From positions 1-60,790 of the forward strand of contig JACPIO010000014.1 in assembly GCA_016188075.1 (NCBI GenBank): a stretch of 60,790 nt of DNA, in the 5' to 3' direction. Under the pieces are notes generated by a model, which had not been told where the DNA came from, did not search any database, and saw only the letters and a list, made by a program, of their open reading frames with translations. The stretch comes from Candidatus Wolfebacteria bacterium (GTDB lineage Bacteria; Patescibacteriota; Minisyncoccia; UBA6257; UBA9933). The translations under genes and the position numbers were made by a program. Positions 11,430 through 59,889 of this stretch are shown piece after piece; the first letter of the stretch is position 1; each line of letters begins with the position of its first letter.

Positions 11430-13148
11430 TTAAGCACAGACCCCAGTTGGGTCGTTGGGGTCGCAAACATTTTGTTTACTATCACGTGTGATAGTAGCGT
11501 CGGGTTCGCAAACTCCATTTGGCTCGCAAACGCCGGAGTCGCTTGGACTACAGACTCCGTCGCTTGCCGCGTTTTTATCGTAAAATCCGCTGCCAGAGAC
11601 ATCTTCTATTTTTCGCACATCACCCATCTTGGCACCGCTGCCGGATCTAACATTCCTCTTTCCGTTTGGCGACTTGCCGCAGATCACTTCTAAATTCGGC
11701 ATATTATCCTGCCGGAAATCAAACCCGTATTTTAAGGAGAGATCAGCCCAGCCCAATTGTTTGCCTAAATCAAAAGCATGGCCGATGGCGGAAATCCATT
11801 CATACATTACCATTTTTTCCATTGCTTCCACGGAATCGCGCGCGTCCATCTGCGCCACGAGCTCGCCGCGCGGGGACAAGAGCGATAATTCAATTAAGCC
11901 TTTTTCCTGATTAGTCGCGATAATCACATTGCCGCGCGGATCTGGAATACAGCGGAGTTTAGTCTCTTGTTTTACAATTTTGTTCGCGTCATTCCACTCC
12001 TTTTTATAAATGTGGGCGCTCGCGGAAACAACGGTTAACGGCCCCATTGGCACGCCCACTGCTTCGGAAATTTCTTTTTGGATTTTAAGTAAGCCGAAAC
12101 AATTGCGCGGCCAGGCTTGATACATATCGTTTGAGCGGATGTAGGAGAGAAGATGAAGAAGATCGTCTTGGATTAAAGCTTGAATCAAAATAATACAGGG
12201 CCGTTTTTTCATTCCTAAATCGCGGTCAGCGTCCCATGTCACAGCGCAGGCGCCGCGGTCGTCTTTCTCTTCCTTCAAGCGATTGATAATAAATTCAATT
12301 TGATTTTTGCCGCGCATTGAACGCATTCTATTTCCATAGCCGTAATGAGCGCCGGGGTGCAATTTATCGGTTGTGTATTGGGTGTAGTATTCGAAAAGTT
12401 CGTTTTTGTTTAAGCCGAGAAGCCAATCGGGGAGATAGGGATTATCTGGGTCTTCGTTTTCGATTACGGTTGAGACCCCTACTAATTCACGGATGTCGTC
12501 ATCATAGTGCGAAGTTTTTATGGCGCCGAAGCGCATTATGTTTTTTAAAACTTCGGGCCAGACGTCAGCCACGCGCTCGCCGCGGAGCTTGAAAACAGCC
12601 GGATCTGTAGGGAAGCGATCGGTTGAAGGAGGCGGCGGATCAGGGAAAATGGCGGCTTCGCGAAACGGGCCTTGGGGTTCGAATTTGTTAATGACAGAAC
12701 TCACTTTTCCCGCATCTTGCTCTTCGCGCATATCAATTACTTCAATGTTTTTTCTAAAATCCTCGATGGCTTTGCGGTCAATTTCTTTTTCAACATAGGC
12801 ATCGGATACTCCTAAAATTTTATTGTCATTATCCAAGCCGTTTTTTATGAGATTCACAATAGCTTGACCGGAACCGGATAAATCCGAACCGCAAACAATA
12901 AGATGGCGAATAAAGGGCCGGGCTAAGATATTTCTGATAATGAAGTTAATCCCTTTTTTGGAATAAAGCTGGCCCACGAGATTGTAGCGGGATTTGTCGA
13001 GGCCCTCCGCGATAAGTTCGCGGCGAGTCCACAAAGTCGCCACGCCCACGGAGGCGGTATCGTTTCCGACGTAAAGCTGGTTTTTAAAATAGAGAGGCCA
13101 AGACATACAATGTAAAACTCGAAATTCTAAATCCGAAATCCTAAACAA
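11430..13148 (-). CDS. Thymidylate-synthase-fold protein with an N-terminal extra domain and a Cys-rich C-terminal tail
   Basis: KRPCIILIQ...YIRSNDMYQAWPRNCF resembles the ThyA/dCMP-hydroxymethylase catalytic-Cys and SxD regions. The tail has repeated GVC(S/E)P units. Confidence 0.6.
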   Translation of the reverse strand: MFRISDLEFRVLHCMSWPLYFKNQLYVGNDTASVGVATLWTRRELIAEGLDKSRYNLVGQLYSKKGINFIIRNILARPFIRHLIVCGSDLSGSGQAIVNLIKNGLDNDNKILGVSDAYVEKEIDRKAIEDFRKNIEVIDMREEQDAGKVSSVINKFEPQGPFREAAIFPDPPPPSTDRFPTDPAVFKLRGERVADVWPEVLKNIMRFGAIKTSHYDDDIRELVGVSTVIENEDPDNPYLPDWLLGLNKNELFEYYTQYTTDKLHPGAHYGYGNRMRSMRGKNQIEFIINRLKEEKDDRGACAVTWDADRDLGMKKRPCIILIQALIQDDLLHLLSYIRSNDMYQAWPRNCFGLLKIQKEISEAVGVPMGPLTVVSASAHIYKKEWNDANKIVKQETKLRCIPDPRGNVIIATNQEKGLIELSLLSPRGELVAQMDARDSVEAMEKMVMYEWISAIGHAFDLGKQLGWADLSLKYGFDFRQDNMPNLEVICGKSPNGKRNVRSGSGAKMGDVRKIEDVSGSGFYDKNAASDGVCSPSDSGVCEPNGVCEPDATITRDSKQNVCDPNDPTGVCA

Positions 13149-41992: not shown

Positions 41993-42066
41993 GGGCTCGT
42001 AGCTCAGCTGGTTAGAGCGTTCCGTTCACATCGGAAAGGTCAGCCGTTCAAGTCGGCTCGAGCCCA
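41993..42066 (+). tRNA. tRNA-Val (CAC)
   Basis: GGGCTCG acceptor, anticodon loop TTCACAT, T-arm AGCCGTTCAAGTCGGCT. Confidence 0.88.
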
Positions 42067-42086
42067 CAGTAAAAAAATCAAAGATT

Positions 42087-42446
42087 ATGCAGGAATTTTT
42101 CACAAAGAATAAAATTGTAATCGCCATATTAGTCGGTTCGGTTATAGTCGGAGGCGCTATTTATCTCTCGCGTTCGCCGGAGTCGCCGGGAATTCAACCG
42201 ACATATCAATTTAATAATGCTCCGAGCGAGGCTAGCATTCTTGATTCGATTACAAAGTCGCCTCAAGGGGCAAATACCAGTTGTGTTATTAAGGGTAATA
42301 TTAGCTCAGGCGGAGAAATTTATCATTTACCCGAGTGTGCTTCTTATGATAAAACTGTAATTAATGAAAACGCAGGAGAAAAGTGGTTTTGCACTGAAAC
42401 CGAAGCAGTTAGTGCCGGTTGGCGCAAGGCGAAAAATTGTCCGTAA
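42087..42446 (+). CDS. Membrane-anchored protein with a C-terminal Cys-containing 'sunset'-like domain
   Basis: N-terminal TM helix. CVIKGNISSGGEIYHLPEC...WFCTETEAVSAGWRKAKNC. Confidence 0.5.
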   Translation: MQEFFTKNKIVIAILVGSVIVGGAIYLSRSPESPGIQPTYQFNNAPSEASILDSITKSPQGANTSCVIKGNISSGGEIYHLPECASYDKTVINENAGEKWFCTETEAVSAGWRKAKNCP

Positions 42447-42487
42447 CGATTCAATTTAAAAGGGACGCTTTGTTTATTTTATAAAAA

Positions 42488-43420
42488 ATGTTTTCAAAAC
42501 CCGTAATACTGGATTCATCCGAGATAAAGAAGTTTGCACAAGGAGACATAATGGACTTGGTTATTAAAGTCGATAAAAATAGATACTTTAATGTAATATT
42601 TGGCGAAGATATACTATTCCGTATCTTAAAAAGAGATTCAGTTATAAAAGAAAAAAATAACCTTAAAAAACTTGTTCGTCATAAAAACCTCGTTGAGAAA
42701 AATAATCTCGAGATCATAAACCAAATAATTGCTCTTGATACAGAAATAAAAGCAATAATTAATAATGATAGATTTTCCGTTAATAAAAAAAGTGGCTACG
42801 ATGACAAAATCGTTTTGATAGAAGATAAAACAAAGCGATTAAAAAACTTAGAAAAGATTTTAGGAGTAGGATTATCAAAAGAAGATGAGATTAGTATTTG
42901 CGGACATTGTAATGCATTTAGATTCGGAGAGGTGATAGGTAAAAGTTTAGGATCTAAAAACCAAGAACGGGAATGTCCTATATGTTCGAGAATTATAAAT
43001 AAATCTTTTGATGTTTTATGTCTTCCCAATGCGATAAAGGATTTTTTAGCTGGAGAATGGTTTGAATTTTATGCATCTAAATTTTTCGAATTAAATGAAT
43101 GGAAAATATTTACAAGGGTTTATGTCTTTGGATCTTCTGGGGTGGAGCATGAGGTTGATTTTTTGGCAGTGAAGAAGGGAATTTCAATTATCGGAGAATG
43201 CAAGACTGGTAATATAACGAGGAGGGATGTTTCAAATTTTATTGCAAAGTATTATGATATAAATTGTACTTACGCAATGTTGATAAGTATAAATAGAGTA
43301 GATCCAGGTACATTAAAATATATAAGAAAAAATCCAAATCTTATATATCTCGATAATATAAAGAAAGATTCTAATATTAACAAGAAAATATTACAATTAG
43401 ATAAAGCTTTAGTAAATTAA
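42488..43420 (+). CDS. Zn-ribbon plus PD-(D/E)xK nuclease-fold protein
   Basis: CGHC...CPIC pairs. HEVDFLAV...IIGECKTG fits D...ExK. Lies in the AT-rich islet. Confidence 0.5.
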   Translation: MFSKPVILDSSEIKKFAQGDIMDLVIKVDKNRYFNVIFGEDILFRILKRDSVIKEKNNLKKLVRHKNLVEKNNLEIINQIIALDTEIKAIINNDRFSVNKKSGYDDKIVLIEDKTKRLKNLEKILGVGLSKEDEISICGHCNAFRFGEVIGKSLGSKNQERECPICSRIINKSFDVLCLPNAIKDFLAGEWFEFYASKFFELNEWKIFTRVYVFGSSGVEHEVDFLAVKKGISIIGECKTGNITRRDVSNFIAKYYDINCTYAMLISINRVDPGTLKYIRKNPNLIYLDNIKKDSNINKKILQLDKALVN

Positions 43421-43423
43421 AAC

Positions 43424-43699
43424 ATGTCTCAGGTTTTGAATTGGACACGTGAGAATATAGAATCAGTTCCAAACGGAATGGGTTTATACGTTCTTAGAAA
43501 TTTCCCCGGGTTAAATGGAATTATTTATATTGGTAAAAGCCTGACTTTAAAAAATAGACTGCTTGAGCACTACAATCTCGGAGATGTGCCGGAAGTGTTA
43601 TATTTTGATTGGTATCCTATAAATACTTCTTCGGAAATAGATAGATTAGAAAGAGAATGGATAATTCAATATAATCCTAAATATAATCAGAGAATATGA
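43424..43699 (+). CDS. GIY-YIG nuclease-domain protein (91 aa)
   Basis: GLYVLRN...GIIYIGKSLTLKNRLLEHYN. Confidence 0.65.
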   Translation: MSQVLNWTRENIESVPNGMGLYVLRNFPGLNGIIYIGKSLTLKNRLLEHYNLGDVPEVLYFDWYPINTSSEIDRLEREWIIQYNPKYNQRI

Positions 43700-43790
43700 T
43701 AGGTGATGGGTTTGTATGCCGAAGTCCCCGCAAAATGTGGGGATTTTTGGTGTTTGTTGCTAAAAAGAAAATCTGTCATAATTGTTTATT

Positions 43791-44636
43791 ATGGAGCCGT
43801 ATTACGAGAGAGATAATTTTATTTTGTATCATGGCGATAGTTTAGAGTTCTTAAAAGAATATCCAGAAAATTCCGTGGATATGGTTTTTGCGGATCCGCC
43901 ATATAACTTATCTAACGGCGGATTTAGTGTTCATGCTGGAAGGAGGGTTAGCGTTAATAAAGGAAATTGGGATAAGAGTAGAGGATTCAATGACGACTAT
44001 AATTTTCACTATGGATGGCTCGAAGTTTGTAAAAGAGTTTTGAAACCTCACGGAACGATTTGGGTGAGTGGGACCTATCACTCGATTTATCAATGCGGAT
44101 ATGCTATTCAAGCGCTGGGCTATCATATTCTGAATGATGTTTCTTGGTTCAAACCGAATGCTTCGCCTAATTTAAGTTGTCGTTTTTTTACTGCAAGCCA
44201 TGAAACTTTGATTTGGGCCAGAAAAGATAAAGAAACCAAGCACACTTTTAATTATAGTCAGATGAAAAATGGTTTTTGGCCAGATGATTTTATTAAAAAA
44301 CCAAATATGCAAATGCGGTCGGTTTGGGCGATTGGGACACCAAAAGGTATTGAAAAAAAGTTTGGCAAGCACCCAACACAAAAGCCGGAAGATTTATTAA
44401 AAAGGATTGTGCTTGCGAGTACGAACAAGGGTGATTTAGTGGTTGATCCTTTTACTGGTAGTTCAACAACTGGTATAGCAGCTTATCTTTTAGGTAGAAA
44501 ATTTATTGGCATTGATAATGAGAAAAAATATTTAGATTTATCAATCAAGCGATTTGAGGAGTTAGATAAAAATTTAAAAAATAAACTGAATTTTAAAAAT
44601 TTTAACATAAAGACGCCGAGTTATATCACAAAGTAA
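43791..44636 (+). CDS. Beta-class N4/N6 DNA methyltransferase
   Basis: Motif IV FADPPYN precedes motif I VVDPFTGSSTTG. HPTQKPEDLL. Confidence 0.88.
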   Translation: MEPYYERDNFILYHGDSLEFLKEYPENSVDMVFADPPYNLSNGGFSVHAGRRVSVNKGNWDKSRGFNDDYNFHYGWLEVCKRVLKPHGTIWVSGTYHSIYQCGYAIQALGYHILNDVSWFKPNASPNLSCRFFTASHETLIWARKDKETKHTFNYSQMKNGFWPDDFIKKPNMQMRSVWAIGTPKGIEKKFGKHPTQKPEDLLKRIVLASTNKGDLVVDPFTGSSTTGIAAYLLGRKFIGIDNEKKYLDLSIKRFEELDKNLKNKLNFKNFNIKTPSYITK

Positions 44637-44648
44637 CAATCAAAGAAT

Positions 44649-45176
44649 ATGATCGAAAAAGGTAAAGGAGGGGGAAATACTCTTACGGGACTTAATTTTG
44701 AAAGGAGAAGCGATATTTTATCTCTTATAAAAAATCTGCGTGGGTATTCTATAAAAGGCAACGTTATCTATTTTGAAAGTAAAGAAGTCGCCAAAAGTTT
44801 TAAGAAATACGGCCTTTATCGTTATTTGAAGTTGGGGGGTGTTGATTACCAAAAATATATATCTAAGCGATTAATGCCGGATGAGGCGATTTATGTAATT
44901 CGCAATAATACACTTTTTGTTATCGAGATGAAGTTTCAAAAAGTTTCTGGATCGGTGGATGAAAAACTGCAGACATGCGATTTCAAAAAGAAACAATACA
45001 AAAAATTAATGGCTCCGTTAAACATTGAAGTTGAATATATTTATATTTTGAGCGATTGGTTCAAAAAACCTGAATATAAAGATACGTTGGATTATATAAT
45101 TTCTGTTGGTTGCCAATATTATTTCCATTATTTGCCGTTACAAAAATTAGGATTACCGGTACCCGATACGAAATAG
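44649..45176 (+). CDS. Putative type II restriction endonuclease
   Basis: Immediately downstream of the methyltransferase. PDEAIYV...FVIEMKFQK fits PD-(D/E)xK. Confidence 0.5.
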   Translation: MIEKGKGGGNTLTGLNFERRSDILSLIKNLRGYSIKGNVIYFESKEVAKSFKKYGLYRYLKLGGVDYQKYISKRLMPDEAIYVIRNNTLFVIEMKFQKVSGSVDEKLQTCDFKKKQYKKLMAPLNIEVEYIYILSDWFKKPEYKDTLDYIISVGCQYYFHYLPLQKLGLPVPDTK

Positions 45177-49490: not shown

Positions 49491-49565
49491 TCCGGGGTAG
49501 TTCAGCGGTAGAACGGCGCCCTGTTAAGGCGAGAGTCGGAGGTTCGAATCCTCCCCCCGGAGCCA
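49491..49565 (+). tRNA. tRNA-Asn (GTT)
   Basis: TCCGGGG acceptor, anticodon loop CTGTTAA, T-arm GGAGGTTCGAATCCTCC, encoded CCA. Confidence 0.9.
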
Positions 49566-49573
49566 AATTGGAT

Positions 49574-49605
49574 GAGCAGAGCCAAAAGCTCTGCTTTTCT
49601 TTTTG
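49574..49605 (+). terminator. Rho-independent terminator AGCAGAGC caaa GCTCTGCT plus a T-run
   Basis: Follows tRNA-Asn. Confidence 0.7.
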
Positions 49606-49953
49606 TTTTCAGCCAAATTTTTGATACAATCGGATTGTTACGAAAATTAAAGGTTTACCCAGAATAAGCGGTTAGATTATACTCACGTAAACATGGCAAG
49701 CCATTAATAGTCTTCCACAGCCCCAATACGCCACCCGCATGGCGCATTCAGCAGGCGAAAACAGGATTTGCGCATAGTTTTAGGCCTAGATGTGTAGATT
49801 GTGGTATTTTTGTGTAGTTTTGACTATGACTTGTGTAGATTTAAAGTCCATAGTATATCTAAAGGGTGCCGATAAAACTTTTCGTGTTACACGGGGTCGA
49901 GACAACGTGCGAGGATGTTTAGCAAAAATAGAATTTTAAAAATAAAATATTTC

Positions 49954-50244
49954 ATGAAACTACAACTGGAAAAATTCGGCACCACTCTCTTATCCCGTGA
50001 ATTAGGCAGCGAGGCGTTCAAAGCGTTTCAGCCCGCCTTACTGGAATTTTCCCCGTCCGATGAATTGGAAATTGATTTTTCCGGCGTATTAACATTGCCA
50101 TCTTCATGGGCGGACGAGTTTTTGAGCCCTCTGCTTGAAAAATTAGATGAGCGGCTGGTGTTATTACCCTCTGACAATCTCTCGGTGCAGGCAACCCTAA
50201 AGATTCTGCAAGAGGCGAATAAACGCCCATTCAAATTTAGATGA
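49954..50244 (+). CDS. Small STAS-like (DUF4325-type) protein
   Basis: ELEIDFSGVLTLPSSWADEFLSPLL resembles STAS-like anti-anti-sigma folds. The track ORF starts at 49915. Confidence 0.4.
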   Translation: MKLQLEKFGTTLLSRELGSEAFKAFQPALLEFSPSDELEIDFSGVLTLPSSWADEFLSPLLEKLDERLVLLPSDNLSVQATLKILQEANKRPFKFR

Positions 50245-50502: not shown

Positions 50503-50532
50503 AAAAGAGCTTATCATATGATAAGCTCTTTT
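50503..50532. promoter_or_regulatory. 30-bp perfect palindrome AAAAGAGCTTATCAT|ATGATAAGCTCTTTT next to a TTGACA box
   Basis: Lies immediately 5' of hsdM, whose product has an N-terminal HTH. TTGACA at 50498-50503. Confidence 0.5.
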
Positions 50533-50536
50533 GTAT

Positions 50537-52333
50537 ATGGATAATAAAACACAATATATAACCACTACGGAACTGGCCAAAATGCTTGGTATCAGCCGCG
50601 TTTCCGCGGCCAAGCGGGTTACGAAGCTCATTAAAGAGGGCGCTATTACAGCTGCGGAAAGGGGCAAGGGCTACATCATAGACAAAGATTCTCTGCCTGA
50701 TGAAATAAAAGACGAAATCCGCAAACAGCAGGATGAAGCCGCTAAAAAAATCACCGAACTTGGCAAAAAAGCAGGCCACGATCTTGAATTTGAAAAAGAG
50801 CTTTGGAAGGCCGCGGATAAATTACGCGGGAGTATTGATGCCTCCGAATACAAGCACATTGTTTTGGGTCTTTTATTTTTAAAGTATGTTTCTGATTCCT
50901 ACTATCAGCGGCGCTGGCAGTTGGAGCAATGGACGAGCGATCCGAAAAACAGGGACTATTTTATAAAAAACGAGGCGGAGAGAAAACATATCATCGGCGA
51001 TAAGGACCAGTACAAGAGCGCCGGAGTTTTCTATATTCCGGAAAAATCCCGATGGGAGCAGTTGCGAAATCACGCGATGCACCATGACATCGGAAAATAC
51101 ATTGATGAGGCGATGGAAGTGATTGAAAACGAAAACCCGAAGGAATTGAAAGGCGTATTGCCGAAAATTTACACAAAAACTACTCTGGACTATCAAATTC
51201 TCGGCGAGCTAGTAAATATTTTTTCAAAAATCAAATTTGACCACGATATAGACAAAGAAAAGGACATCCTTGGCCGCGTGTACGAATACTTTTTGGGGCA
51301 GTTCGCTTCCGCCGAAGGGAAAAGAGGCGGAGAGTTCTATACTCCGCGCTCCATTGTTCGACTTTTGGTTGAAGTATTATCGCCGTATGAAAACGCTCGT
51401 GTCTTTGATCCTGCTTGCGGGTCGGGCGGAATGTTTGTGCAGTCCAACGAGTTCTTGAAGATGCACCAAAAGGACCCGACTAAAATTTCGTTCTTCGGGC
51501 AGGAAAGCAACCCGACAACGCTTCGGCTTTGTAAGATGAATCTTGCCATCCGAGGCATCATCGGCCAAATGGAAATCGGAAATTCCTATTATGATGATAA
51601 ATTTCCAGACCTTCGCGCGGACTTCGTGCTTGCCAATCCTCCTTTTAACGCTGACTGGGAACCGGACCGGCTTTCTGACAAAGACCCGCGCATTAAATTC
51701 GGCACGCCGCCCGGAAGCAACGCCAACTTTTTATGGATTCAGCATTTTATTCATCATCTTTCGCCCAACGGAATGGCAGGTTTTGTTATGGCAAATGGGG
51801 CACTTGCAGTAGGTGGGCGTGAGGGCGAGATACGCAGAAAAATTATTGAAGAAGATTTGGTTGATGTGATTATCGCCTGTCCGCCGAAACTTTTTTACAA
51901 TGTCGCGCTTCCTGTTTCTCTCTGGTTTGTGTCTAAAAACAAAAAAAATGGTAGATTCCGAAATCGCACCGGTGAGACGCTTTTTATAGACGCGCGCGAG
52001 ACATTTGAGCAGATTTCCCGCAAGCAGGTTACATTCACTAAAGAACAAATAAAAAAAATCGCGGGTACAGTTCGCGCATGGCGTGGCGAAGTGGGCGCGG
52101 ATAAATACGAAGACATCGCTGGTTTCTGCAAAGGAGTCAAAAAAGAAGAAATCGCCAAAAACGGCTATGTCCTCACCCCCGGCCGGTATGTTGGCGTTGC
52201 GGAAGAAGAAGACGACGGGGTGCCGTTTGAGGAGAAAATGGCCGTATTAAACAAAGATTTGAATAAATACTTTGAAGAAGGTCGAAAATTAGAGATAGAA
52301 ATTAAAAGTAATTTAACCAAATTAAATATATGA
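50537..52333 (+). CDS. hsdM: Type I R-M methyltransferase subunit with an N-terminal HTH extension
   Basis: LWKAADKLRG..YKHIVLGLLFLKY, GEFYTPRSIV, DPACGSGGM, LANPPFN. The first about 80 aa are HTH-like (TTTELAKMLGISRVSAAKRV). Confidence 0.92.
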   Translation: MDNKTQYITTTELAKMLGISRVSAAKRVTKLIKEGAITAAERGKGYIIDKDSLPDEIKDEIRKQQDEAAKKITELGKKAGHDLEFEKELWKAADKLRGSIDASEYKHIVLGLLFLKYVSDSYYQRRWQLEQWTSDPKNRDYFIKNEAERKHIIGDKDQYKSAGVFYIPEKSRWEQLRNHAMHHDIGKYIDEAMEVIENENPKELKGVLPKIYTKTTLDYQILGELVNIFSKIKFDHDIDKEKDILGRVYEYFLGQFASAEGKRGGEFYTPRSIVRLLVEVLSPYENARVFDPACGSGGMFVQSNEFLKMHQKDPTKISFFGQESNPTTLRLCKMNLAIRGIIGQMEIGNSYYDDKFPDLRADFVLANPPFNADWEPDRLSDKDPRIKFGTPPGSNANFLWIQHFIHHLSPNGMAGFVMANGALAVGGREGEIRRKIIEEDLVDVIIACPPKLFYNVALPVSLWFVSKNKKNGRFRNRTGETLFIDARETFEQISRKQVTFTKEQIKKIAGTVRAWRGEVGADKYEDIAGFCKGVKKEEIAKNGYVLTPGRYVGVAEEEDDGVPFEEKMAVLNKDLNKYFEEGRKLEIEIKSNLTKLNI

Positions 52334-53352
52334 ACGAAAGACCAAGCGAAATAAACGATCAAAATGTTCTTACTGCAGATATAGAATCTATTGCTCAAGA
52401 TAGAAGATTTGATGAGCTAAAGTTTGAGAATGCAAAGGATAAATTAAGCAAGGTTCAAAAATGGCTTGTTGAAGCAAAAGAGCTAAATTTTGAAAAGCTT
52501 TTAATATCAGAAGATATAACTCGAATATCAGATATTAAAAATCAGCTAATAAAATACCTGCAAGATCTTTTAACTTTTGATAATAGGACAACAAGAGAGA
52601 ATGCTAAACAAGAACACGATAGTTTAGAAAACCAGGTTGAAAAATATTATAACGGGGCGTATCAACATATCGCGATGCGCATTCTTCCGTTTTTGAGGCA
52701 GGAAGTGGCTAGAAGTAGTGAAGATGCCAAAGAACTTGAGAAACGACAAAAATCCGCATCCCAAGCTGAAAAAAAGTATAAGGAGTTGTCCGAAAAATTA
52801 GAAACACGATTTCAAGAATTAGATCAGCAAGAGAAAGAACTTGATGAGAAAAAGAAACAAGTAGAGTCGGGGCATGGCGAGCTTGCCGCAGTACGTCTTA
52901 CCAAGCACTTTCAAGGAGAAGCTGATAATTATGCAGAACTATCGAACAACTGGTTAAAAATAAGATCTAAATTTTACTGGGGCATTATAATCATAATTCT
53001 TATATTGGCAGCTATTTATTTTTATGTCGGATGGGAAAAGATTTCTTTACAGTTGGGAGTTGCAAAAATAATATTTTTGTCTGCCCTGTGGTATGGATTA
53101 GCTTTTGCCACTCGCAATTATAACATCAACTCTCATTTAGCAGCCGTAAATAGACATCGGGCAGCAGTTGCGCGTACCCTCGAAGATTTTCTAGAATCGA
53201 ACCCAGAAAGAAAATCAGAGATGTTAAAAAATGCCACCGAAGCCATGTTCAAACATGCACCGATTGGTTTTGTTACAAAAGCGGAAAAAGATTCCGGAAA
53301 CCCTCTTTTTGAGATTATAAATAAAATTATTAATCCGAGGGACGGTCAATAG
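52330..53352 (+). CDS. Coiled-coil protein with two C-proximal TM helices (R-M-embedded)
   Basis: The start overlaps the hsdM stop (ATGA). Long E/K-rich helix, then YWGIIIIILILAAIYFYVGW and IIFLSALWYGLAFA. Confidence 0.6.
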   Translation: MNERPSEINDQNVLTADIESIAQDRRFDELKFENAKDKLSKVQKWLVEAKELNFEKLLISEDITRISDIKNQLIKYLQDLLTFDNRTTRENAKQEHDSLENQVEKYYNGAYQHIAMRILPFLRQEVARSSEDAKELEKRQKSASQAEKKYKELSEKLETRFQELDQQEKELDEKKKQVESGHGELAAVRLTKHFQGEADNYAELSNNWLKIRSKFYWGIIIIILILAAIYFYVGWEKISLQLGVAKIIFLSALWYGLAFATRNYNINSHLAAVNRHRAAVARTLEDFLESNPERKSEMLKNATEAMFKHAPIGFVTKAEKDSGNPLFEIINKIINPRDGQ

Positions 53353-53358
53353 TGATTT

Positions 53359-53424
53359 ATGAATCAAACAATTAAAGATACGACTTGGCGGAAGGTGAAG
53401 TTGGTAAGAAAAATTTATGAATAA
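53359..53424 (+). pseudogene. Remnant of an hsdS 5' end
   Basis: MNQTIKDTTWRKVKL... parallels the hsdS N-terminus MKTNIKTTWWKVKL. 23 of 25 nt are identical (53380-53404 versus 54261-54285). Confidence 0.5.
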
Positions 53425-54253
53425 CATACAGATTGAGCAATTCGATAAGCGACTCAGAGAGCTTGGTAAATTTACCCAAGACCGTGACGGTGGCTACAAA
53501 GAAACGGAAATCATCGACTGGATTGCTGATTGCACAAACCTTTTCTATGAAGTTGGGGTTGATTCTGTGGCAATTCGCCACTTTTTGGATTACTTCAATT
53601 TTAGGATTGAAGAAGTAAAAATTAATAATGACATGGTTATATTCCCAGGCCATAATGACCGTTTTGAAAAAGTAAGGGTCATAGGCCCTTTTCAGGAGGA
53701 GTATAACGATGATGGTTTCTTTCGCCGCAAAACGGGGAATTATATTTTGGCGGGTAGCTTCTATTATGCGAGGGTTGCTTTTTCAGCAGCAAAAAATACC
53801 CTGAAAAGAAAAATCGAAGAAAAGAGACTTGTGCCTTTCTGGCTTGTTGAACAAACAGCGACTCAAGACAAACTCAAACATCTTACCTCATCGTTAGAGT
53901 TGATTGAAAATAAATATGAACAAAGGGATGCTCACGGCCTTGTCACAGAATCTATCACCCTACTGGATAGTGTTTTAAATTTAGATGAGGATTTGAAAAC
54001 AAAAGACAGTATAGGAGGTAAATTAAACTCATTAATTGAGAATGAATCGAAGCGCCAATCTTTTGGTGTAAGCAGAGATTTAGTTGTGGGTCTTAACAGC
54101 GGCCGAATCTTAAGAAACGAGAAAGTGATTCACAAAGAAGCACCGCTGAAATACGAAATACCTTTTTTGATCGCCACGAGTTTTGCGTATTTGGTTTTAT
54201 TTTTTGTAGAGTGTGCCATTTTAAATGGAAAAGTTATTCATTATGAAAACTAA
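53417..54253 (+). CDS. Hypothetical protein with a HEPN-type motif (R-M-embedded)
   Basis: 278 aa. C-terminal GRILRNEKVIH fits R-[NDH]-x(4-5)-H. Confidence 0.55.
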   Translation: MNNIQIEQFDKRLRELGKFTQDRDGGYKETEIIDWIADCTNLFYEVGVDSVAIRHFLDYFNFRIEEVKINNDMVIFPGHNDRFEKVRVIGPFQEEYNDDGFFRRKTGNYILAGSFYYARVAFSAAKNTLKRKIEEKRLVPFWLVEQTATQDKLKHLTSSLELIENKYEQRDAHGLVTESITLLDSVLNLDEDLKTKDSIGGKLNSLIENESKRQSFGVSRDLVVGLNSGRILRNEKVIHKEAPLKYEIPFLIATSFAYLVLFFVECAILNGKVIHYEN

Positions 54254-55478
54254 TATCAAAACAACTTGGTGGAAGGTGAAGTTGGGAGAATTTGCAAACA
54301 TAAACCCAACGGTTCAGCTTCAACGCGGCAAAGAGTATTCATTTTTGGATATGGCGGATGTCACGCCGCTTTCGCGCACAACAAACTGGCAAAAGCGGAA
54401 AATTTTCAAAGGTTCCGGGGCGAGATTTGAAGAGGGCGACACTCTATTTGCTCGCATTACTCCTTGTTTAGAGAATGGAAAGATAACGCAAGCTCAAGAG
54501 CTAAAAAGTCCCGCGTTCGGATCAACTGAATTCTATGTATTACGTGGCATACAAGGTGTATCTGACAGCGACTTTATTCATTATTTATCTCGCACATTCC
54601 GTATCCGAAAACTAGCCGAAGGAAGCATGGTTGGTGCTTCTGGTCGTCAGCGTGTAGAACGCGTTGCTTTTGAAAATATAGAGACAGAAGTTCCAGAAAG
54701 TCTAGAGATCCAAAAACGCATTGCGGACATTCTTTCCGCTTTTGATGACAAGATTGAACTGAACAATAAAATCAGCAAAAATTTGGAGGCAACGGCGCAG
54801 GCGATTTTTAAGGAGTGGTTTGTAAATTTCCGTTTTCCCGGCCATGAAAAAATAAAAATGATTGATTCTGAATTGGGGGAAATTCCAGAGGGGTGGGGGG
54901 TGAAAATGTTGCCCGAGGTTTTTGATTTTCTTGAAGGGCCTGGCATTAGAAACTGGCAATATGCCCCAGAGGGGTGCCGCTTCATCAACATTCGTCTTAT
55001 CCAAAATAATGATATAGACATTAAGTCAGCAAATTCCATTTCAGAAAAAGAAGCAAATGGAAAATATAAACATTTTCACCTTCAAGAGCGAGATATGGTC
55101 GTATCAACATCAGGAACGCTTGGAAGATTGGCCATCGTTAGAGAAGAACACCTGCCATTATTACTTAACACCTCGGTCATTAGATTTAAGCCAAAAGATA
55201 AGCAGAACTACGGCTTTATGTACCAATTCCTAAATTCCGCTTACTTCCAAAACAAGGTATTAAGTATGGCATCAGGAAGCGCACAACCAAACTTTGGCCC
55301 AGTACACTTAAAACAAATTGAGGTGCTTATGCCGGACAAGAGCATATTGGGTACTTTTGGAAGTTCGGTAAATTCAATTTACGAAAGAATCATCGCCATT
55401 AAATCAGAAAACCAAAAATTAGCCGCGCTCCGCGATTTGCTTTTACCAAAGTTAATGAGTGGGGAGATTCTTGTTTAA
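54243..55478 (+). CDS. hsdS: Type I R-M specificity subunit
   Basis: Two TRD halves with conserved spacers (ILSAFDDKIELNNKI...; LAALRDLLLPKLMSGEI). The track ORF starts at 54225. Confidence 0.9.
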   Translation: MKTNIKTTWWKVKLGEFANINPTVQLQRGKEYSFLDMADVTPLSRTTNWQKRKIFKGSGARFEEGDTLFARITPCLENGKITQAQELKSPAFGSTEFYVLRGIQGVSDSDFIHYLSRTFRIRKLAEGSMVGASGRQRVERVAFENIETEVPESLEIQKRIADILSAFDDKIELNNKISKNLEATAQAIFKEWFVNFRFPGHEKIKMIDSELGEIPEGWGVKMLPEVFDFLEGPGIRNWQYAPEGCRFINIRLIQNNDIDIKSANSISEKEANGKYKHFHLQERDMVVSTSGTLGRLAIVREEHLPLLLNTSVIRFKPKDKQNYGFMYQFLNSAYFQNKVLSMASGSAQPNFGPVHLKQIEVLMPDKSILGTFGSSVNSIYERIIAIKSENQKLAALRDLLLPKLMSGEILV

Positions 55479-55481
55479 ATT

Positions 55482-56444
55482 ATGAAATCCCGACATCAAA
55501 TTTTATTGGATAATTCAATTTCAGCCACACTTGCTGGAATTGAGATTTATAACAAGCCGATTTTTTCAAATAGAGAAGCTAGTTTCTGTTTTCAAATTGT
55601 GAATGCCTGGGAACTTTTGCTAAAGGCAAAAATCCTCAAAAACAATCGTAATCAACTTAAACATATCTATAAATACGAGGGACGATTTATTAAACGAAAT
55701 CGATCCAGTAACCCAATGACCATTGGCATTTATGAGGCATTTGGGAAAATAAGAAATCTTGACACGCGAATCAAGAGTAATCTTGAGGAATTAATAGCTA
55801 TTCGTGACGCCGCTACTCATTTTTATTACAAATCAAAAGCACTTCCGTATTTGGTGTTTACGCTCGGCACAGCAGCATTAAGGAATTACGAAAAATGTTG
55901 TCGCGATTGGTTTTCCACAAATCTAGATAAATATAACTTCTACATTTTGCCGATAGGGTTCGGTTATACATTTCAAACCTTTTCTAAACTTACTACGCGA
56001 GACGAAACAGAAGAAATAGCAAACATTATGCGTTCTGTTTCAAAAAAACAATCGCGCTTAAAGTCGGCATCACCTACGGATTTTCAGTTTATCTGCGAGA
56101 TTAAAATTCAAACAGTTTCGGTCAAGAAAGCGAAGGACGCCGACATAGTTGCAAGTATTGATAGTAGCGGGGCAGACGCTCAATTTATAGAACGCGAGGT
56201 TAATAAATTAGACAAATATCCATATACTTTTAGGCAGATTCTAGCTGAGGCAAAGAAACAAAAGAATATCAAACCAAATAAATTATCAAGTTTTATAAGA
56301 GAGCGGAACATTAAGGACAATCCGGCATATCACGACTATACCTACCGAAGCAAGAAACACGAATCAGAAAATAAACCATCTTCTGATATTTATAACTACG
56401 CCTTTTTGCAATTAGTAATTAATGATCCGTACTTTAAATCATGA
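55482..56444 (+). CDS. Hypothetical protein with a HEPN-type motif (R-M-embedded)
   Basis: Starts 3 nt after the hsdS stop, and its stop overlaps the hsdR start (ATGA). IAIRDAATHFYY fits R-D-x3-H. Confidence 0.55.
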   Translation: MKSRHQILLDNSISATLAGIEIYNKPIFSNREASFCFQIVNAWELLLKAKILKNNRNQLKHIYKYEGRFIKRNRSSNPMTIGIYEAFGKIRNLDTRIKSNLEELIAIRDAATHFYYKSKALPYLVFTLGTAALRNYEKCCRDWFSTNLDKYNFYILPIGFGYTFQTFSKLTTRDETEEIANIMRSVSKKQSRLKSASPTDFQFICEIKIQTVSVKKAKDADIVASIDSSGADAQFIEREVNKLDKYPYTFRQILAEAKKQKNIKPNKLSSFIRERNIKDNPAYHDYTYRSKKHESENKPSSDIYNYAFLQLVINDPYFKS

Positions 56445-59400
56445 AAAAACTTAACGAAGACACACTAACCGAACAGCCGGTCATAGAGTGGTTCAAGGAG
56501 ATGGGCTATGACCACGAAAAAGGGCCTGACATAGCGCCTGGACAAATTACCGGCGAGCGCGAGGACTTTCGCGAGGTAGTTTTGGTTGGACGGCTTAAGC
56601 GGTATATTCGTCGTCTCAATCCTGATTTACCGGAAGCCGCTATTGATGATGTCGCGCGGAGTTTGAAATCAGAACATCCGAATTTGGAAATCGCGAATAA
56701 AGAAATTTATACTATGCTGACGCAAGGTGTGCGCGTTAATTTTCGGGGCGCGGACGAAGAAGATATTTGGCGATTCGCGAAAATTGTTGATTTTGATAAC
56801 CCCCAGAATAATGAATTTCTTGTCATCAATCAATTCGCGATTCAGGGATCGGAAAAGGTTCGCCGACCGGATGTGGTTGTTTTTGTAAACGGAATCCCGC
56901 TTGCGATTTTCGAACTCAAAAACCCAGCGCTTGAAAATGCGACAATCTACACTGCCTATGAGCAGCTGCGGGAGTATAAAAAAGATATTCCGGAGATCTT
57001 CAAATACAATCAGGTACTTGTTGTTGGCGATTTAATTGAAGCGAGACACGGCACAATTTCATCGTCGTGGGAGTGGTTTTCGCACTGGAAAGGCATTGAA
57101 AGCGAAGATGAGCAGAATCACGGCATTTCTGAGCTTGAAACCTTAGCGCGAGGAATTTTTCATAAAATTCGATTTTTGGATATTGTCCGGAACTTTATTA
57201 TTTTTGAGGCCGATGCCGAAAAAGACGCAAGTAAATTCACAAAAAAGATGGCAATGTACCATCAATACTTTGGCGTAAACAAAGCCGTGAATGAGACTTT
57301 GCGCGCCGCAAAGCCGAGGGGAAATAAAAAAATCGGTGTTTTCTGGCATACGCAAGGATCGGGCAAATCGCTTTCAATGGTTTTTTATACAAACAAAGCC
57401 AAGCGGTTGGAAGAATTAAAAAGCCCGACATTTGTATTTTTGACTGACAGAAACGATCTTGATGGACAGTTTTATAAAACATTTTTGCGAAGTGGCTATC
57501 CAAGCGCGAAGCAAGCGGAAAGCGTCACTGGATTGAAAGAAAGATTACGCGAAGCGGCCGGCGAACTTATTTTTACGACAATTCAGAAATTTGATACTGA
57601 ATATGAGGTTTTGAGCGAACGAGAAAATATCATTGTTATTGCGGACGAAGCGCATCGCTCGCAGTATGCGAAATTTGCTGGCAATGTCCGAGTTGCTTTA
57701 CCGAACGCCTCGTTCATGGGCATCACGGGTACCCCGATAAGTCTGCAAAATCGCGAAACGCGACTTGTATTTGGAAACCACATCAGCGAATACAAGATAA
57801 ACCAAGCCGTAGAAGACGGCGCAACCGTTCCGATTTATTACGAAGGTCGCCTCGTGCCTTTGCATCTGGCGAATCAATTTATTGATGAGGAGTTTGAGGA
57901 CTTGACCGGCGAGATAGAATTTGAGGCAAAAGAAGTGTACAAGCGTAAATGGGCGCGACTTGAGCAAGCCGTAAGCGCAAAAGATCGTCTGGAGCAAGTG
58001 GCAAAAGATATAGTTTCGCATTTTAACAATCGCGGGCTTGAGGGAAAAGGAATGATTGTGACAATTTCGAGAAAGACGGCGGTTGAGATGTATAAAATAA
58101 TTTCAAAGTTATTGAGCGCGCCCGCCTACGCCGACCTGCGCTTCGCCGATGGCTCCATCAAGGCGAGGGCTTCGGCGGGCAAGCCGGAAGTGGCGGTTGT
58201 TATTTCAAAACCGGAAGATTTTCCGGAACTTCATCAAAGCAGAGATACAAAAGAGCTGGAAAAAAGATTTAAAAATCCCGATGACTCATTGAAACTCGTG
58301 ATTGTATGCGATATGTGGTTGACCGGCTTTGATGTTCCTTCGCTTCACACTATGTATATTGATAAGCCGCTCAAAAATCATACCTTGATGCAAGCGATAG
58401 CTCGCGTCAATAGAATTTTTAAGGACAAGCCCGGCGGTCTTATCGTGGACTATATTGGAATTGCTGACGATCTAAAGAAAGCCCTCTCAATTTATAGTTC
58501 AGGCATACAGAAGGAGGCAATGATACCGATTGAGGAAATTATTGCCAAGATGATGGAAAAATACGATATCGTTCGCGCGATGTTTGCTGGCGTTGAATAC
58601 AAGGAATGGAAGAAGCTGAAAGGCTCGGACCTGGCGCAGCTATTTCAAAAAGCGGTCAATACGATTATCACGAACGAAAGAAGCGGAATGGTTGATGATG
58701 AACAGAAAAAACGATTTGCGAAAGAAACAGAACTACTCTCACAGCTTTTTGCATTTGCTATGCCGCACAAGGAAGCAAACGCCATACGAAATGAAGTTGA
58801 ATTTTTCCAAGCAGTGAAGCGTGCGGTTATTAAACGGATAATCATCCAGCCCGAAGGCATTGGGTTTGATATTGAATCTGCTGTACGAGAGCTTGTTTCC
58901 AAGGCCATATCTGCCGAGGGAGTCATTGATATTTTTGACATGAAGGGCAAAGGAAGGCCGGACATTTCTATTTTTGATGAGAAGTTTTTGGAAGAGGTGA
59001 AAAATCTGAAGTACAAGAATCTTTCCGTGGATGTGCTTCGCAAACTCTTGAATGATGAGCTCCGAGTGAGGATGAGGAAAAATCTGGTTCGTTACAAATC
59101 GCTTCTTGATATGTTGGAAGATATAATTGAAAAATACGAAAACAACATCATCAATTCCACGAAAGTTATTGAGAAACTGATTGAATTGGCAAAGGAAATC
59201 CGGAAGGTTGAGAAACAGGGCGAAGGCATCGGCTTGTCAGAGGAAGAAATGGCGTTTTATGATGCGATATCCGTCGGACGCAAAGCAATCAACGGAAATG
59301 GAAAATTTAAGGAATTGGTACGCGAGCTTGTAAAAATCATCAAGAGAGATTTGGCGATTGATTGGATGAATAATGATATAATCAAAGCGAGGATTCGTGC

Positions 59401-59521
59401 GAATGTTAAGCTGCTATTGTTACGAAAAGGATACAAGGCGGAAGAAAGCGAAAAGGTTTTAGATTTGATATATCAACAAGCATTTTCATTGTACAGAGAT
59501 TTTGTGCCAGCTATGGCGTAA
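56441..59521 (+). CDS. hsdR: Type I restriction enzyme R subunit
   Basis: RPDVVVFVNGIPL nuclease region, GSGKS, VIADEAHRSQ, GITGTPI, QAIARVNR. Confidence 0.95.
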   Translation: MKKLNEDTLTEQPVIEWFKEMGYDHEKGPDIAPGQITGEREDFREVVLVGRLKRYIRRLNPDLPEAAIDDVARSLKSEHPNLEIANKEIYTMLTQGVRVNFRGADEEDIWRFAKIVDFDNPQNNEFLVINQFAIQGSEKVRRPDVVVFVNGIPLAIFELKNPALENATIYTAYEQLREYKKDIPEIFKYNQVLVVGDLIEARHGTISSSWEWFSHWKGIESEDEQNHGISELETLARGIFHKIRFLDIVRNFIIFEADAEKDASKFTKKMAMYHQYFGVNKAVNETLRAAKPRGNKKIGVFWHTQGSGKSLSMVFYTNKAKRLEELKSPTFVFLTDRNDLDGQFYKTFLRSGYPSAKQAESVTGLKERLREAAGELIFTTIQKFDTEYEVLSERENIIVIADEAHRSQYAKFAGNVRVALPNASFMGITGTPISLQNRETRLVFGNHISEYKINQAVEDGATVPIYYEGRLVPLHLANQFIDEEFEDLTGEIEFEAKEVYKRKWARLEQAVSAKDRLEQVAKDIVSHFNNRGLEGKGMIVTISRKTAVEMYKIISKLLSAPAYADLRFADGSIKARASAGKPEVAVVISKPEDFPELHQSRDTKELEKRFKNPDDSLKLVIVCDMWLTGFDVPSLHTMYIDKPLKNHTLMQAIARVNRIFKDKPGGLIVDYIGIADDLKKALSIYSSGIQKEAMIPIEEIIAKMMEKYDIVRAMFAGVEYKEWKKLKGSDLAQLFQKAVNTIITNERSGMVDDEQKKRFAKETELLSQLFAFAMPHKEANAIRNEVEFFQAVKRAVIKRIIIQPEGIGFDIESAVRELVSKAISAEGVIDIFDMKGKGRPDISIFDEKFLEEVKNLKYKNLSVDVLRKLLNDELRVRMRKNLVRYKSLLDMLEDIIEKYENNIINSTKVIEKLIELAKEIRKVEKQGEGIGLSEEEMAFYDAISVGRKAINGNGKFKELVRELVKIIKRDLAIDWMNNDIIKARIRANVKLLLLRKGYKAEESEKVLDLIYQQAFSLYRDFVPAMA

Positions 59522-59538
59522 AAATCGTCGACAAAATT

Positions 59539-59889
59539 ATGACTCTCATTCTCATCTCCATAATTATTTTTCTGGCCGCGGCGGTTGTGGCGCTGGTTGT
59601 TTTCGCGCGCAAAGAGGCGGGGAAACACGGCACAAGCGTGAAGGAAGAATTTGTCGGGATCTGCGCCTCGGCCATTGAAACGGCTTCGCAGAAGGAGGCT
59701 CGCAAGGAAAGCGCGCTCGCGTATCTACGCTCGCGCGGTGAGCTTTCCAACTCCGAAATCCGCAAAGCGCTTGGTGTTTCCAGCCGTACAGCCGTGCGCT
59801 ATCTGGACGAATTGGAGGCGGAAGGAAAAGTGGAACAGGTCGGCAAAATCGGCCACACCGTCACTTATCGTCTAAAACACACCGCCTAG
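59539..59889 (+). CDS. Membrane-anchored winged-HTH protein
   Basis: N-terminal TM helix. SNSEIRKALGVSSRTAVRYLDELEAEGKV. Confidence 0.55.
   Translation: MTLILISIIIFLAAAVVALVVFARKEAGKHGTSVKEEFVGICASAIETASQKEARKESALAYLRSRGELSNSEIRKALGVSSRTAVRYLDELEAEGKVEQVGKIGHTVTYRLKHTA

Follow-up and report, generated by a model that had tools for sequence, protein, structure and literature searches.

Does a set of genes inserted between the subunit genes of a restriction-modification (R-M) operon form one defence module with the R-M enzyme, or do such genes act on their own? This question is raised by a type I R-M locus of Candidatus Wolfebacteria (contig JACPIO010000014.1), in which three additional genes, encoding proteins of 340, 278, and 320 aa (ORF340, ORF278, and ORF320), lie within the operon. 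The original prediction, made from the 60,790-nucleotide stretch of DNA analysed here (the window), was an undescribed R-M-guarded abortive-infection module that pairs RNase-type effectors with a membrane protein. The reading that best accounts for the results, with a probability of roughly 0.6, is that of an intact type I R-M system whose inter-subunit slots have taken up three single genes as independent passengers, which are probably accessory anti-phage or anti-plasmid effectors. It is already appreciated that accessory immune genes nested between R-M subunit genes are a fertile place to find new defence systems, and the locus adds two families, ORF278 and ORF340, that are unnamed in Pfam, NCBIfam, PADLOC, and PHROGs. 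Most members of both families belong to the candidate phyla radiation, a group about whose immune repertoire little is known.

The host operon and its junctions

All six genes are read on the + strand in the predicted order hsdM, ORF340, ORF278, hsdS, ORF320, and hsdR. The host is an intact type I R-M system, with diagnostic Pfam domains in all three subunits. HsdM (50531..52333, 600 aa) has an extra N-terminal HTH domain (HTH_11 at residues 3-49) in addition to HsdM_N (2e-25) and N6_Mtase (3.6e-105), HsdS (54243..55478) has two Methylase_S domains, and HsdR (56441..59521, 1026 aa) is intact and has HSDR_N, SWI2_SNF2, T1R_D3-like, and T1RH-like_C domains.

Three tight junctions lie where they had been placed: the hsdM stop overlaps the start of ORF340 (52330..53352) in an ATGA at 52330-52333, a 3-nt spacer separates the hsdS stop (TAA, 55476-78) from the ATG of ORF320 (55482..56444), and the ORF320 stop overlaps the hsdR start in an ATGA at 56441-56444. 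The wider claim that the inserted genes are coupled holds only in part. ORF278 (53417..54253) does overlap the likely hsdS start, by 11 nt, but it is not directly coupled to ORF340, from which it is separated by a 64-nt gap occupied by a 21-codon upstream ORF (uORF, 53359..53424, + strand, MNQTIKDTTWRKVKLVRKIYE*). The hsdS start is likely to be ATG 54243 (MKTNIKTTWWKVKLGE) because this codon aligns with the uORF copy and with the hsdS starts of other loci (L028, L112-L115); a further in-frame ATG lies upstream at 54225. A search for an att-like copy of the tRNA-Asn 3′ end that might delimit an island was negative, as was a blastn comparison of the 4.1-kb region with plasmids.

The three inserted protein families

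By its sequence, ORF320 is a member of a known HEPN family previously described in R-M operons. Residues 8-190 match Pfam DUF3644 (PF12358; 4.5e-43, 147 bits against a cut-off of 27.6) and are followed by a C-terminal domain, while the PADLOC family PDC-S19 (PDLC04954) matches across residues 1-310 of 320 (3.5e-63). A zinc finger was sought in the C-terminal 130 aa, with no match. The R/H motif picked out originally, IAIRDAATHFYY at residues 105-116, contains R108-D109-x3-H113, in which R108 and H113 are invariant and D109 is at least 90% conserved (alignment A3, 28 sequences, ~40% identity). The DUF3644 or “EC042_2821” family was assigned to HEPN and associated with R-M operons by Anantharaman et al. 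(2013, PMC3710099), and ORF320 agrees with this description in its domain match, its invariant R-D-x3-H motif, and its location in an R-M operon. In HEC-08, a DUF3644 protein, mutation of the motif histidine H128 abolishes defence (Payne et al. 2024, preprint), and Ishtar (2026 preprint), representing a type related to ORF320, drives plasmid loss and has a β/α C-terminal domain; a literature search under the name “PDC-S19” returned no papers. DUF3644 genes lie within four genes of an hsd gene in at least 16 of 77 loci, and ~79% of the 77 have no type I system. The label “undescribed” is accordingly not supported for ORF320, a DUF3644/PDC-S19 protein published in R-M operons; the families of ORF278 and ORF340 are without annotation.

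The ORF278 family comprises 92 clusters among 1.84 billion representatives, and an exhaustive profile search never left the family. ORF278 has no match in Pfam, PADLOC, NCBIfam, or PHROGs, and Pfam is also blank for all 53 aligned members. The AF2 model (pLDDT 81.5 overall, <50 over the motif loop 235-244) has an α/β N-terminal domain (~1-115) and a helical C-terminal domain. The motif GRILRNEKVIH was correctly placed near the C-terminus (229-239); it contains R233-N234-x4-H239, with a polar residue after the arginine, and precedes the last helix (248-269). Alignment A4, with 53 sequences that reach as low as 18% identity, has R233 and H239 as its sole invariant columns; conservation exceeds 90% at N234 and R230. 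The R-x4-6-H motifs of both ORF320 and ORF278 are thus conserved and of catalytic type, as had been proposed.

The fold of ORF278 is less clear-cut. The best Foldseek match in the PDB is the HEPN structure 2hsb (E 0.69, probability 0.69, TMt 0.48), and the top ten include the HEPN toxin 7ae6 (TMt 0.47) and the HEPN-containing AbiA 8oz7; none of these matches is significant. An hhalign comparison of the ORF278 and DUF3644 families aligned the motif only (probability 0.17, not significant), a Foldseek search of the model against BFVD returned nothing, and PDB sequence-profile searches with the family alignments A1 and A2 (the latter of ORF340) returned nothing meaningful. ORF278 is a candidate for a new HEPN-like family, the resemblance to a HEPN fold falling short of statistical significance. 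The last helix is very hydrophobic (251-269, KD 2.24), enough that it could be a membrane anchor rather than part of the bundle core. A 278-aa gene in the same slot of another locus (L042) was rejected as a relative and encodes a KilA-N-type protein.

ORF340 has 94 homologues and an all-helical AF2 model (pLDDT 83.8) made up of an N-terminal helical domain, a coiled coil, a TM hairpin, and a C-terminal segment. The long helix followed by two hydrophobic helices that had been read from the sequence is confirmed, with hydrophobic segments at 215-233 and 242-260. This hairpin is kept across the family (two hydrophobic peaks in most of 41 members, at least one in all). The C-terminal juxtamembrane segment “NRHRAAVA” is conserved, with N274, H276, and R277 invariant (alignment A2). 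A conserved segment of ~80 aa follows TM2, a part of the protein that the original prediction had passed over.

Pfam, NCBIfam, PADLOC, and PHROGs gave no real family for ORF340 and coiled-coil-type matches only; those to LmuB, LeoBC, and tape measure proteins are of this type and were not taken as homology. Foldseek against the PDB returned only generic helical bundles (PE/PPE, apolipoprotein). ORF340 resembles SLATT-type 2TM effectors in its conserved TM hairpin, the predicted cytoplasmic location of both termini, and its defence context. It differs from them in that, at E≤0.1, neither Pfam nor PADLOC assigns it to SLATT or another 2TM family. It also has a large N-terminal helical/coiled-coil part and a distinct “NRHR” juxtamembrane helix, and is seen with no nucleotide-signal generator. 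Since ORF340 has neither a catalytic motif nor a fold relative, it is the genomic context that points to an effector role. Family members lie within or beside type I, two-gene RM+S, or type III-like R-M systems in ~12 of 27 loci, where they follow hsdM or precede hsdR in type I loci (L017, L021, L022, L024, L026, L027), separate the M/RM and S genes (L012, L015, L126, L129), or stand beside a mod/res pair and a TIR-like gene (L132-134). At least 12 loci have no type I system.

ORF278 and the duplicated hsdS start

ORF278 homologues are located directly 5′ of hsdS, overlapping its start, in each of the 10 type I loci whose downstream sequence could be read (the window, L003, L028, L112, L113, L114/115, L116, L117, L120, and L121), and in L005 and L124 hsdM is upstream of the homologue. 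Type I linkage is found for ~12 of 17-19 loci, while 5-7 have no hsd gene nearby and L001, L002, L004, L122, and L125 have no type I system; phmmer gives a minimum count of hsd genes, and many of the contigs are short.

A repeat search in the window identified a 57-nt direct repeat flanking ORF278. Copy 1 (53348..53404, + strand) corresponds to the hsdS 5′ region, copy 2 (54229..54285, + strand) takes in the 3′ end of ORF278 together with the true start of hsdS, and the two are 74% identical at a spacing of 881 nt. The repeat core TGGYGGAAGGTGAAGTTGG is found at 53386 and 54267 alone, with 0 occurrences expected by chance. The uORF represents the hsdS 5′ end in its upstream copy, and the uORF stop (53422-24) overlaps the ORF278 ATG (53417-19). 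Equivalent uORFs, ending in RK[IM]YE and a stop codon, precede the ORF278 homologues of L028, L112, L113, and L114/115, and the duplicated hsdS 5′ end flanking ORF278, together with a uORF over the start codon, is found in five loci. This architecture was not met in the retrieved literature on embedded defence genes, and no recombinase or transposase travels with ORF278 among the clustered neighbours.

In the sequence of events that we infer, ORF278 would have been brought in when the conserved 5′ end of hsdS recombined. The start of hsdS would thereby have been duplicated, its upstream copy now serving as a uORF that passes ribosomes to ORF278. The cassette may thereby offer a concrete entry route (hsdS 5′ recombination, duplicated start, coupling uORF), and the hsdS-5′ duplication signature could be searched systematically for more embedded cargo.

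Independent passengers or a guarded module

All three families recur within or adjoining R-M operons in other genomes, as the original prediction had proposed to check. They do not co-occur in any locus outside the window (27 ORF340, ~19 ORF278, and 77 DUF3644 loci), and neighbour clustering revealed no dedicated partner gene for ORF278 or ORF340 beyond hsd or other R-M genes. The three families are therefore taken to be independent, and the copies of each outside type I operons argue against obligate R-M dependence. The strict coupling of ORF278 to hsdS is the sole feature that hints at such dependence. This adjacency might reflect a functional requirement, in which case ORF278 would not be fully “independent”, and a PrrC-like guard relationship is possible that would be confined to ORF278 with HsdS.

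The same slots in sister operons hold DRT UG13b, PARIS AriAB, Schlafen/AlbA_2, Abi_alpha, PDC-S05, Bro-N, and KilA-N genes. In L022, hsdM and hsdR are 72% and 66% identical to those of the window, the ORF340 homologue is just 32% identical, and the other slots hold different cargo. Such nesting of unrelated defence genes between R-M subunit genes is the pattern described as “guilt-by-embedding” for type I R-M, BREX, DISARM, and Hma systems (Payne et al. 2024), although the ORF278 and ORF340 families are not in PADLOC v2. As independent passengers, the three genes would be co-expressed with the R-M genes. ORF320 would be an RNase of the DUF3644-type HEPN class acting via R108/H113, a PDC-S19 family protein with HEC-08 and Ishtar-type relatives, and ORF278 a predicted RNase acting via R233/H239 with an N-terminal α/β sensor domain. 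ORF340, a two-TM protein with predicted N-in/C-in topology, would combine a coiled-coil “sensor” in the cytoplasm with its conserved juxtamembrane helix and may act at the membrane as an abortive-infection-type effector.

The other readings draw to differing extents on PrrC and RloC, with which the locus shares an R…H HEPN-type motif and a gene set tightly among the hsd genes of a type I operon. In PrrC and RloC, an ABC-ATPase domain serves regulation. Neither ORF278 nor ORF320 has an N-terminal ABC-ATPase or P-loop match, both families also occur outside R-M loci, and prrC lies between hsdS and hsdR, whereas ORF278 lies 5′ of hsdS. The boldest proposal, which we regard as doubtful, is that ORF278 is a HEPN ribonuclease of a new kind, latent and coupled to HsdS, which would do the work of PrrC/RloC without an ATPase domain and occur mainly in the candidate phyla radiation. 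It would spread on a ~880-nt cassette that includes an hsdS 5′ copy and inserts itself into any compatible hsdS by homologous recombination, the displaced start being reused as a coupling uORF, and ORF340 would represent a new R-M-associated membrane effector family.

A guard relationship limited to ORF278 is unlikely as well. ORF278 alone would depend on HsdS, as a latent HEPN RNase silenced by M2S1 or R2M2S1 and a third, ATPase-less analogue of PrrC/RloC, with ORF340 and ORF320 as independent passengers. The overlap with the hsdS start is consistent with this, as it is retained in all readable type I loci despite differing other cargo, and so are the predominance of type I linkage, the uORF and overlap architecture that ties ORF278 and HsdS synthesis together, and the hsdS 5′ end copy that the cassette brings with it. 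However, the adjacency could follow entirely from the way the cassette inserts, through homologous recombination with the conserved 5′ end of hsdS, and the ORF278 loci with no nearby hsd gene also count against dependence. Should HsdS prove to silence it, ORF278 would add a new and simpler case of an R-M-guarded suicide RNase.

The single module of the original prediction is improbable. In that model, the three genes and the R-M enzyme would work as PrrC/EcoprrI does: the Hsd complex would hold the HEPN RNases latent, and phage inhibition of restriction would free them to act with the membrane protein. The tight or overlapping junctions fit co-translation, ORF278 in type I loci always adjoins hsdS, ORF340 mostly comes straight after hsdM, and PrrC provides a published precedent embedded almost exclusively in type I R-M systems. 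Against the model stands the distribution of the families, which come together in no other locus examined, have no recurrent partner except hsd genes, and each occur without a type I system, ORF340 also with non-type-I R-M systems. It is further weakened by the unrelated defence genes that fill the same slots in sister operons and by the absence of the regulatory domain of PrrC/RloC from the proteins. In addition, TgvAB of V. cholerae VPI-2 is embedded in a T1RM and works independently of it (PMC11411939).

A role outside defence is most improbable: passengers acting as R-M accessory or selfish elements (ORF340 tethering or regulating the R-M complex at the membrane, ORF278 as a toxin-like addiction or mobility cassette spreading among hsdS genes) would fit the presence of ORF340 with three R-M architectures, always near methylase or specificity genes, and the repeats bounding ORF278, which would permit recombinational gain and loss, but no recombinase or transposase accompanies ORF278, members of both families are also found where no R-M gene is present, and the slots of sister operons hold recognised defence genes rather than R-M regulators.

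Operon anatomy and the DUF3644 guest

The type I restriction-modification (R-M) operon of the window comprises six genes, all on the + strand and in the order originally read: hsdM (50531-52333), ORF340 (340 aa, 52330-53352), ORF278 (278 aa, 53417-54253), hsdS (54225/54243-55478), ORF320 (320 aa, 55482-56444), and hsdR (56441-59521). The three R-M subunits are intact on the basis of their Pfam domains: HsdM_N and N6_Mtase in HsdM, two stretches of Methylase_S in HsdS, and HSDR_N, SWI2_SNF2, T1R_D3-like, and T1RH-like_C in HsdR. The ATGA overlaps at 52330 and 56441, the 3-nt spacer ahead of ORF320, and the R/H peptide motifs of ORF278 and ORF320 all read exactly as the original prediction described them. 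Of the coupling that it reads for all three guest genes, the hsdM/ORF340 and ORF320/hsdR overlaps are confirmed; ORF340 and ORF278 are not directly coupled but lie 64 nt apart, with the gap occupied by a short upstream ORF (uORF). The tight junctions would secure co-expression of the guest genes with the R-M subunits.

HsdM carries an extra N-terminal winged-HTH (HTH_11, 5e-06; window 50531-50700, residues about 3-55) and is 600 aa long versus the usual ~500, with the same extension in the homologue of locus L022 (596 aa; L-numbers denote loci in other genomes that carry homologues of the guest genes). This HTH might autoregulate the operon in the manner of a controller protein. A 116-aa protein that starts 18 nt after hsdR (window 59539-59889) combines an N-terminal TM helix (residues 3-21, KD 3.35) with a C-terminal winged HTH and could be a membrane-anchored regulator.

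In Pfam, ORF320 falls in DUF3644 (4.5e-43), and PADLOC PDC-S19 (3.5e-63) covers it from end to end. R108 and H113 are invariant in the family alignment, and D109 is nearly so. DUF3644 was identified as a HEPN family by Anantharaman et al. 2013, who listed R-M operon occurrence under the overlapping EC042_2821 family. HEC-08, whose N-terminal domain is DUF3644, confers phage defence that is abolished by mutation of the motif histidine (Payne et al. 2024), and a 2026 preprint describes 'Ishtar', DUF3644/DUF4145 HEPN proteins that drive plasmid loss. Given these matches, the literature, and the invariant R108/H113, the HEPN call is right and ORF320 is not new, contrary to the view of it as undescribed. 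The family has at least 1,815 matches in many phyla; hsd genes lie at most four genes away in at least 16 of 77 DUF3644 genome loci, and the hsdS-DUF3644-hsdR order of the window is also present in L042.

ORF278, a candidate HEPN-like family at the hsdS 5′ end

None of the profile libraries scanned, including Pfam, PADLOC, NCBIfam, and PHROGs, recognises a family in ORF278. A word-indexed search retrieves 33 homologues, mostly from Patescibacteria, and an exhaustive profile search of 1.84 billion representatives yields only 92 clusters, all about 250-290 aa. Across 53 diverse members, with identities as low as 18%, R233 and H239 are the sole invariant columns and N234 and R230 are at least 90% conserved, the pattern expected of a catalytic R-N-x4-H HEPN dyad. 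In the AF2 model (pLDDT 81.5), an alpha/beta domain forms the N-terminal part and a helical domain the C-terminal part; the R/H motif lies just ahead of the last helix. The model's top PDB match is the HEPN protein 2hsb (prob 0.69, TMt 0.48), and the HEPN toxin 7ae6 and AbiA 8oz7 are within the ten best, none of them significant. The hhalign comparison of the family with DUF3644 is likewise not significant, the sole aligned segment being the R[ND]..H..P-hydrophobic stretches of both. ORF278 probably belongs to the HEPN superfamily (about 0.7), with the caveat that its last helix (251-269, KD 2.24) is hydrophobic enough for a membrane anchor.

An ORF278 homologue lies directly 5′ of hsdS, overlapping its start, in every type I locus with readable downstream sequence (the window, L003, L028, L112, L113, L114/115, L116, L117, L120, and L121). 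In L005 and L124, hsdM is upstream and the contig stops within the homologue. R-M genes are absent from five to seven loci: L001, L002, L004 (whose contig is also that of L123), L122, and L125, and probably L118 and L119. ORF278 appears to represent a new, HEPN-like family with ties to hsdS.

Of the new details at this locus, the architecture of the ORF278 cassette is of most interest. In the window, L028, L112, L113, and L114/115, the gene is bracketed by two direct copies of the 5′ end of hsdS, spaced 881-887 nt apart. In the window, the repeat core TGGYGGAAGGTGAAGTTGG is confined to 53386 and 54267, against a chance expectation of none. The upstream copy is the uORF (53359-53424, + strand), whose 21 codons encode MNQTIKDTTWRKVKLVRKIYE and mirror the true hsdS start (MKTNIKTTWWKVKLGE, ATG at 54243); its stop and the ORF278 ATG share an 8-nt overlap. 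Counterparts of this uORF, with RK[IM]YE before the stop, are found in L028, L112, L113, and L114/115. The cassette presumably arrived by recombination at this conserved 5′ end of hsdS. The displaced hsdS start would now couple translation into ORF278, whose stop overlaps the real hsdS start. Immediately upstream of the L003 homologue, an ORF (L003 8050-8093) ends in TNWEVRKLQ; this end is similar to LDWQQVKLGD at the hsdS start of that locus and may mark an older remnant of the hsdS 5′ end that has since degraded.

ORF320 and ORF278 would act as HEPN RNases through the R/H dyad of each, the remaining domains would serve as sensors, and ORF340 would act at the membrane. Of the three, only ORF278, given its invariant coupling to hsdS, is a plausible case of a latent RNase masked in PrrC-like fashion by the R-M complex. 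This adjacency could also be explained by the insertion mechanism alone, and ORF278 occurs in stand-alone copies too.

ORF340, a candidate R-M-linked membrane family

Pfam domains are absent from all 94 ORF340 homologues found. Their alignment combines a helical N-terminal domain with a coiled coil, a TM hairpin, and a conserved 'NRHRAAVA...MFKH.PIGF' stretch in the C-terminal part, with N274, H276, and R277 invariant. Hydropathy (41 members, most with two hydrophobic peaks and all with at least one) and the AF2 model (pLDDT 83.8, long helical hairpins) agree with the helical part and two hydrophobic helices of the original prediction, which is refined by a conserved cytoplasmic segment after the second TM helix. 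Flanking charges suggest an N-in/C-in topology. The model has no meaningful relative in the PDB.

Over 27 distinct loci, the ORF340 homologue lies directly after hsdM in type I loci (L017, L021, L022, L026, and the window), directly before hsdR (L024, L027), between a fused RM gene (Pfam-confirmed HSDR_N_2, N6_Mtase, and Eco57I) and an S gene (L126, L129), or between another N6-methylase and an S gene (L012, L015). In L132-134, its neighbours, within an element that includes a serine recombinase, are a TIR-like gene and a mod/res pair, and in L135 it adjoins an EVE-domain gene; in the remaining loci, R-M genes were not seen nearby. R-M linkage holds in about 12 of 27 loci, far above chance adjacency, and ORF340 appears to be a new R-M-linked membrane family.

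In L132-134 (L132 7001-13297), a 429-aa protein that weakly matches a CAP12/Pycsar-type TIR (5.6e-4) comes after the homologue, as does the mod/res pair, which is type III-like. In L133 and L134 a large serine recombinase is upstream, suggestive of a mobile defence element. The closest relative on a long contig (62% identity; L030 1-18665) sits in a roughly 12-kb insertion between S12/S7/EF-G and EF-Tu/S10 genes that also contains an N6_N4 methylase and a PIF1-type helicase.

Probably independent cargo in the guest slots

Homologues of all three guests recur inside or beside R-M operons elsewhere. A fixed three-gene module does not fit: no two of the families co-occur in the other loci examined, neighbour clustering finds hsd genes as the sole recurrent partners, and in sister operons these slots are occupied by recognised defence genes, namely DRT UG13b (L017), a PARIS AriAB fusion and a Schlafen/AlbA_2 ATPase (L113), Abi_alpha (L121), PDC-S05 (L115), and Bro-N and KilA-N proteins (L003, L042). 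L022 is 72% (hsdM) and 66% (hsdR) identical to the window, with its ORF340 homologue at only 32% and different cargo in the two remaining slots. This pattern matches the embedded defence genes, variable and acquired independently, that Payne et al. 2024 describe and of which TgvAB, functional without HsdR, is an example. The original observation is confirmed and its interpretation stands in part, with ORF278 and ORF340 as new candidates within a known class of R-M-embedded defence genes.

Just upstream of the DUF4325 and R-M genes, tRNA-Asn (49491-49565) is followed by a strong terminator-like hairpin (window 49491-49596); a search downstream, as far as the contig end, revealed no att-like repeat of the tRNA 3′ end. 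The DUF4325 (STAS-like) protein, 109 aa long (window 49915-50244), is encoded just upstream of hsdM. L016 also encodes a homologue of this protein (12248-12517, 5e-06), two genes downstream of ORF340's counterpart there. Beside tRNA-Val (41993-42067), a low-GC stretch (window 41993-45176, 32-35% versus about 44%) contains a second R-M pair, which is type II-like. It consists of an N6_N4_Mtase (43782-44636, 5.4e-58) and a candidate small PD-(D/E)XK nuclease (44649-45176), preceded by two unannotated ORFs. Several MAGs labelled 'uncultured Gammaproteobacteria' (L008, L022, L003, L042) hold the closest relatives of genes otherwise found in Patescibacteria, and these labels may be wrong.
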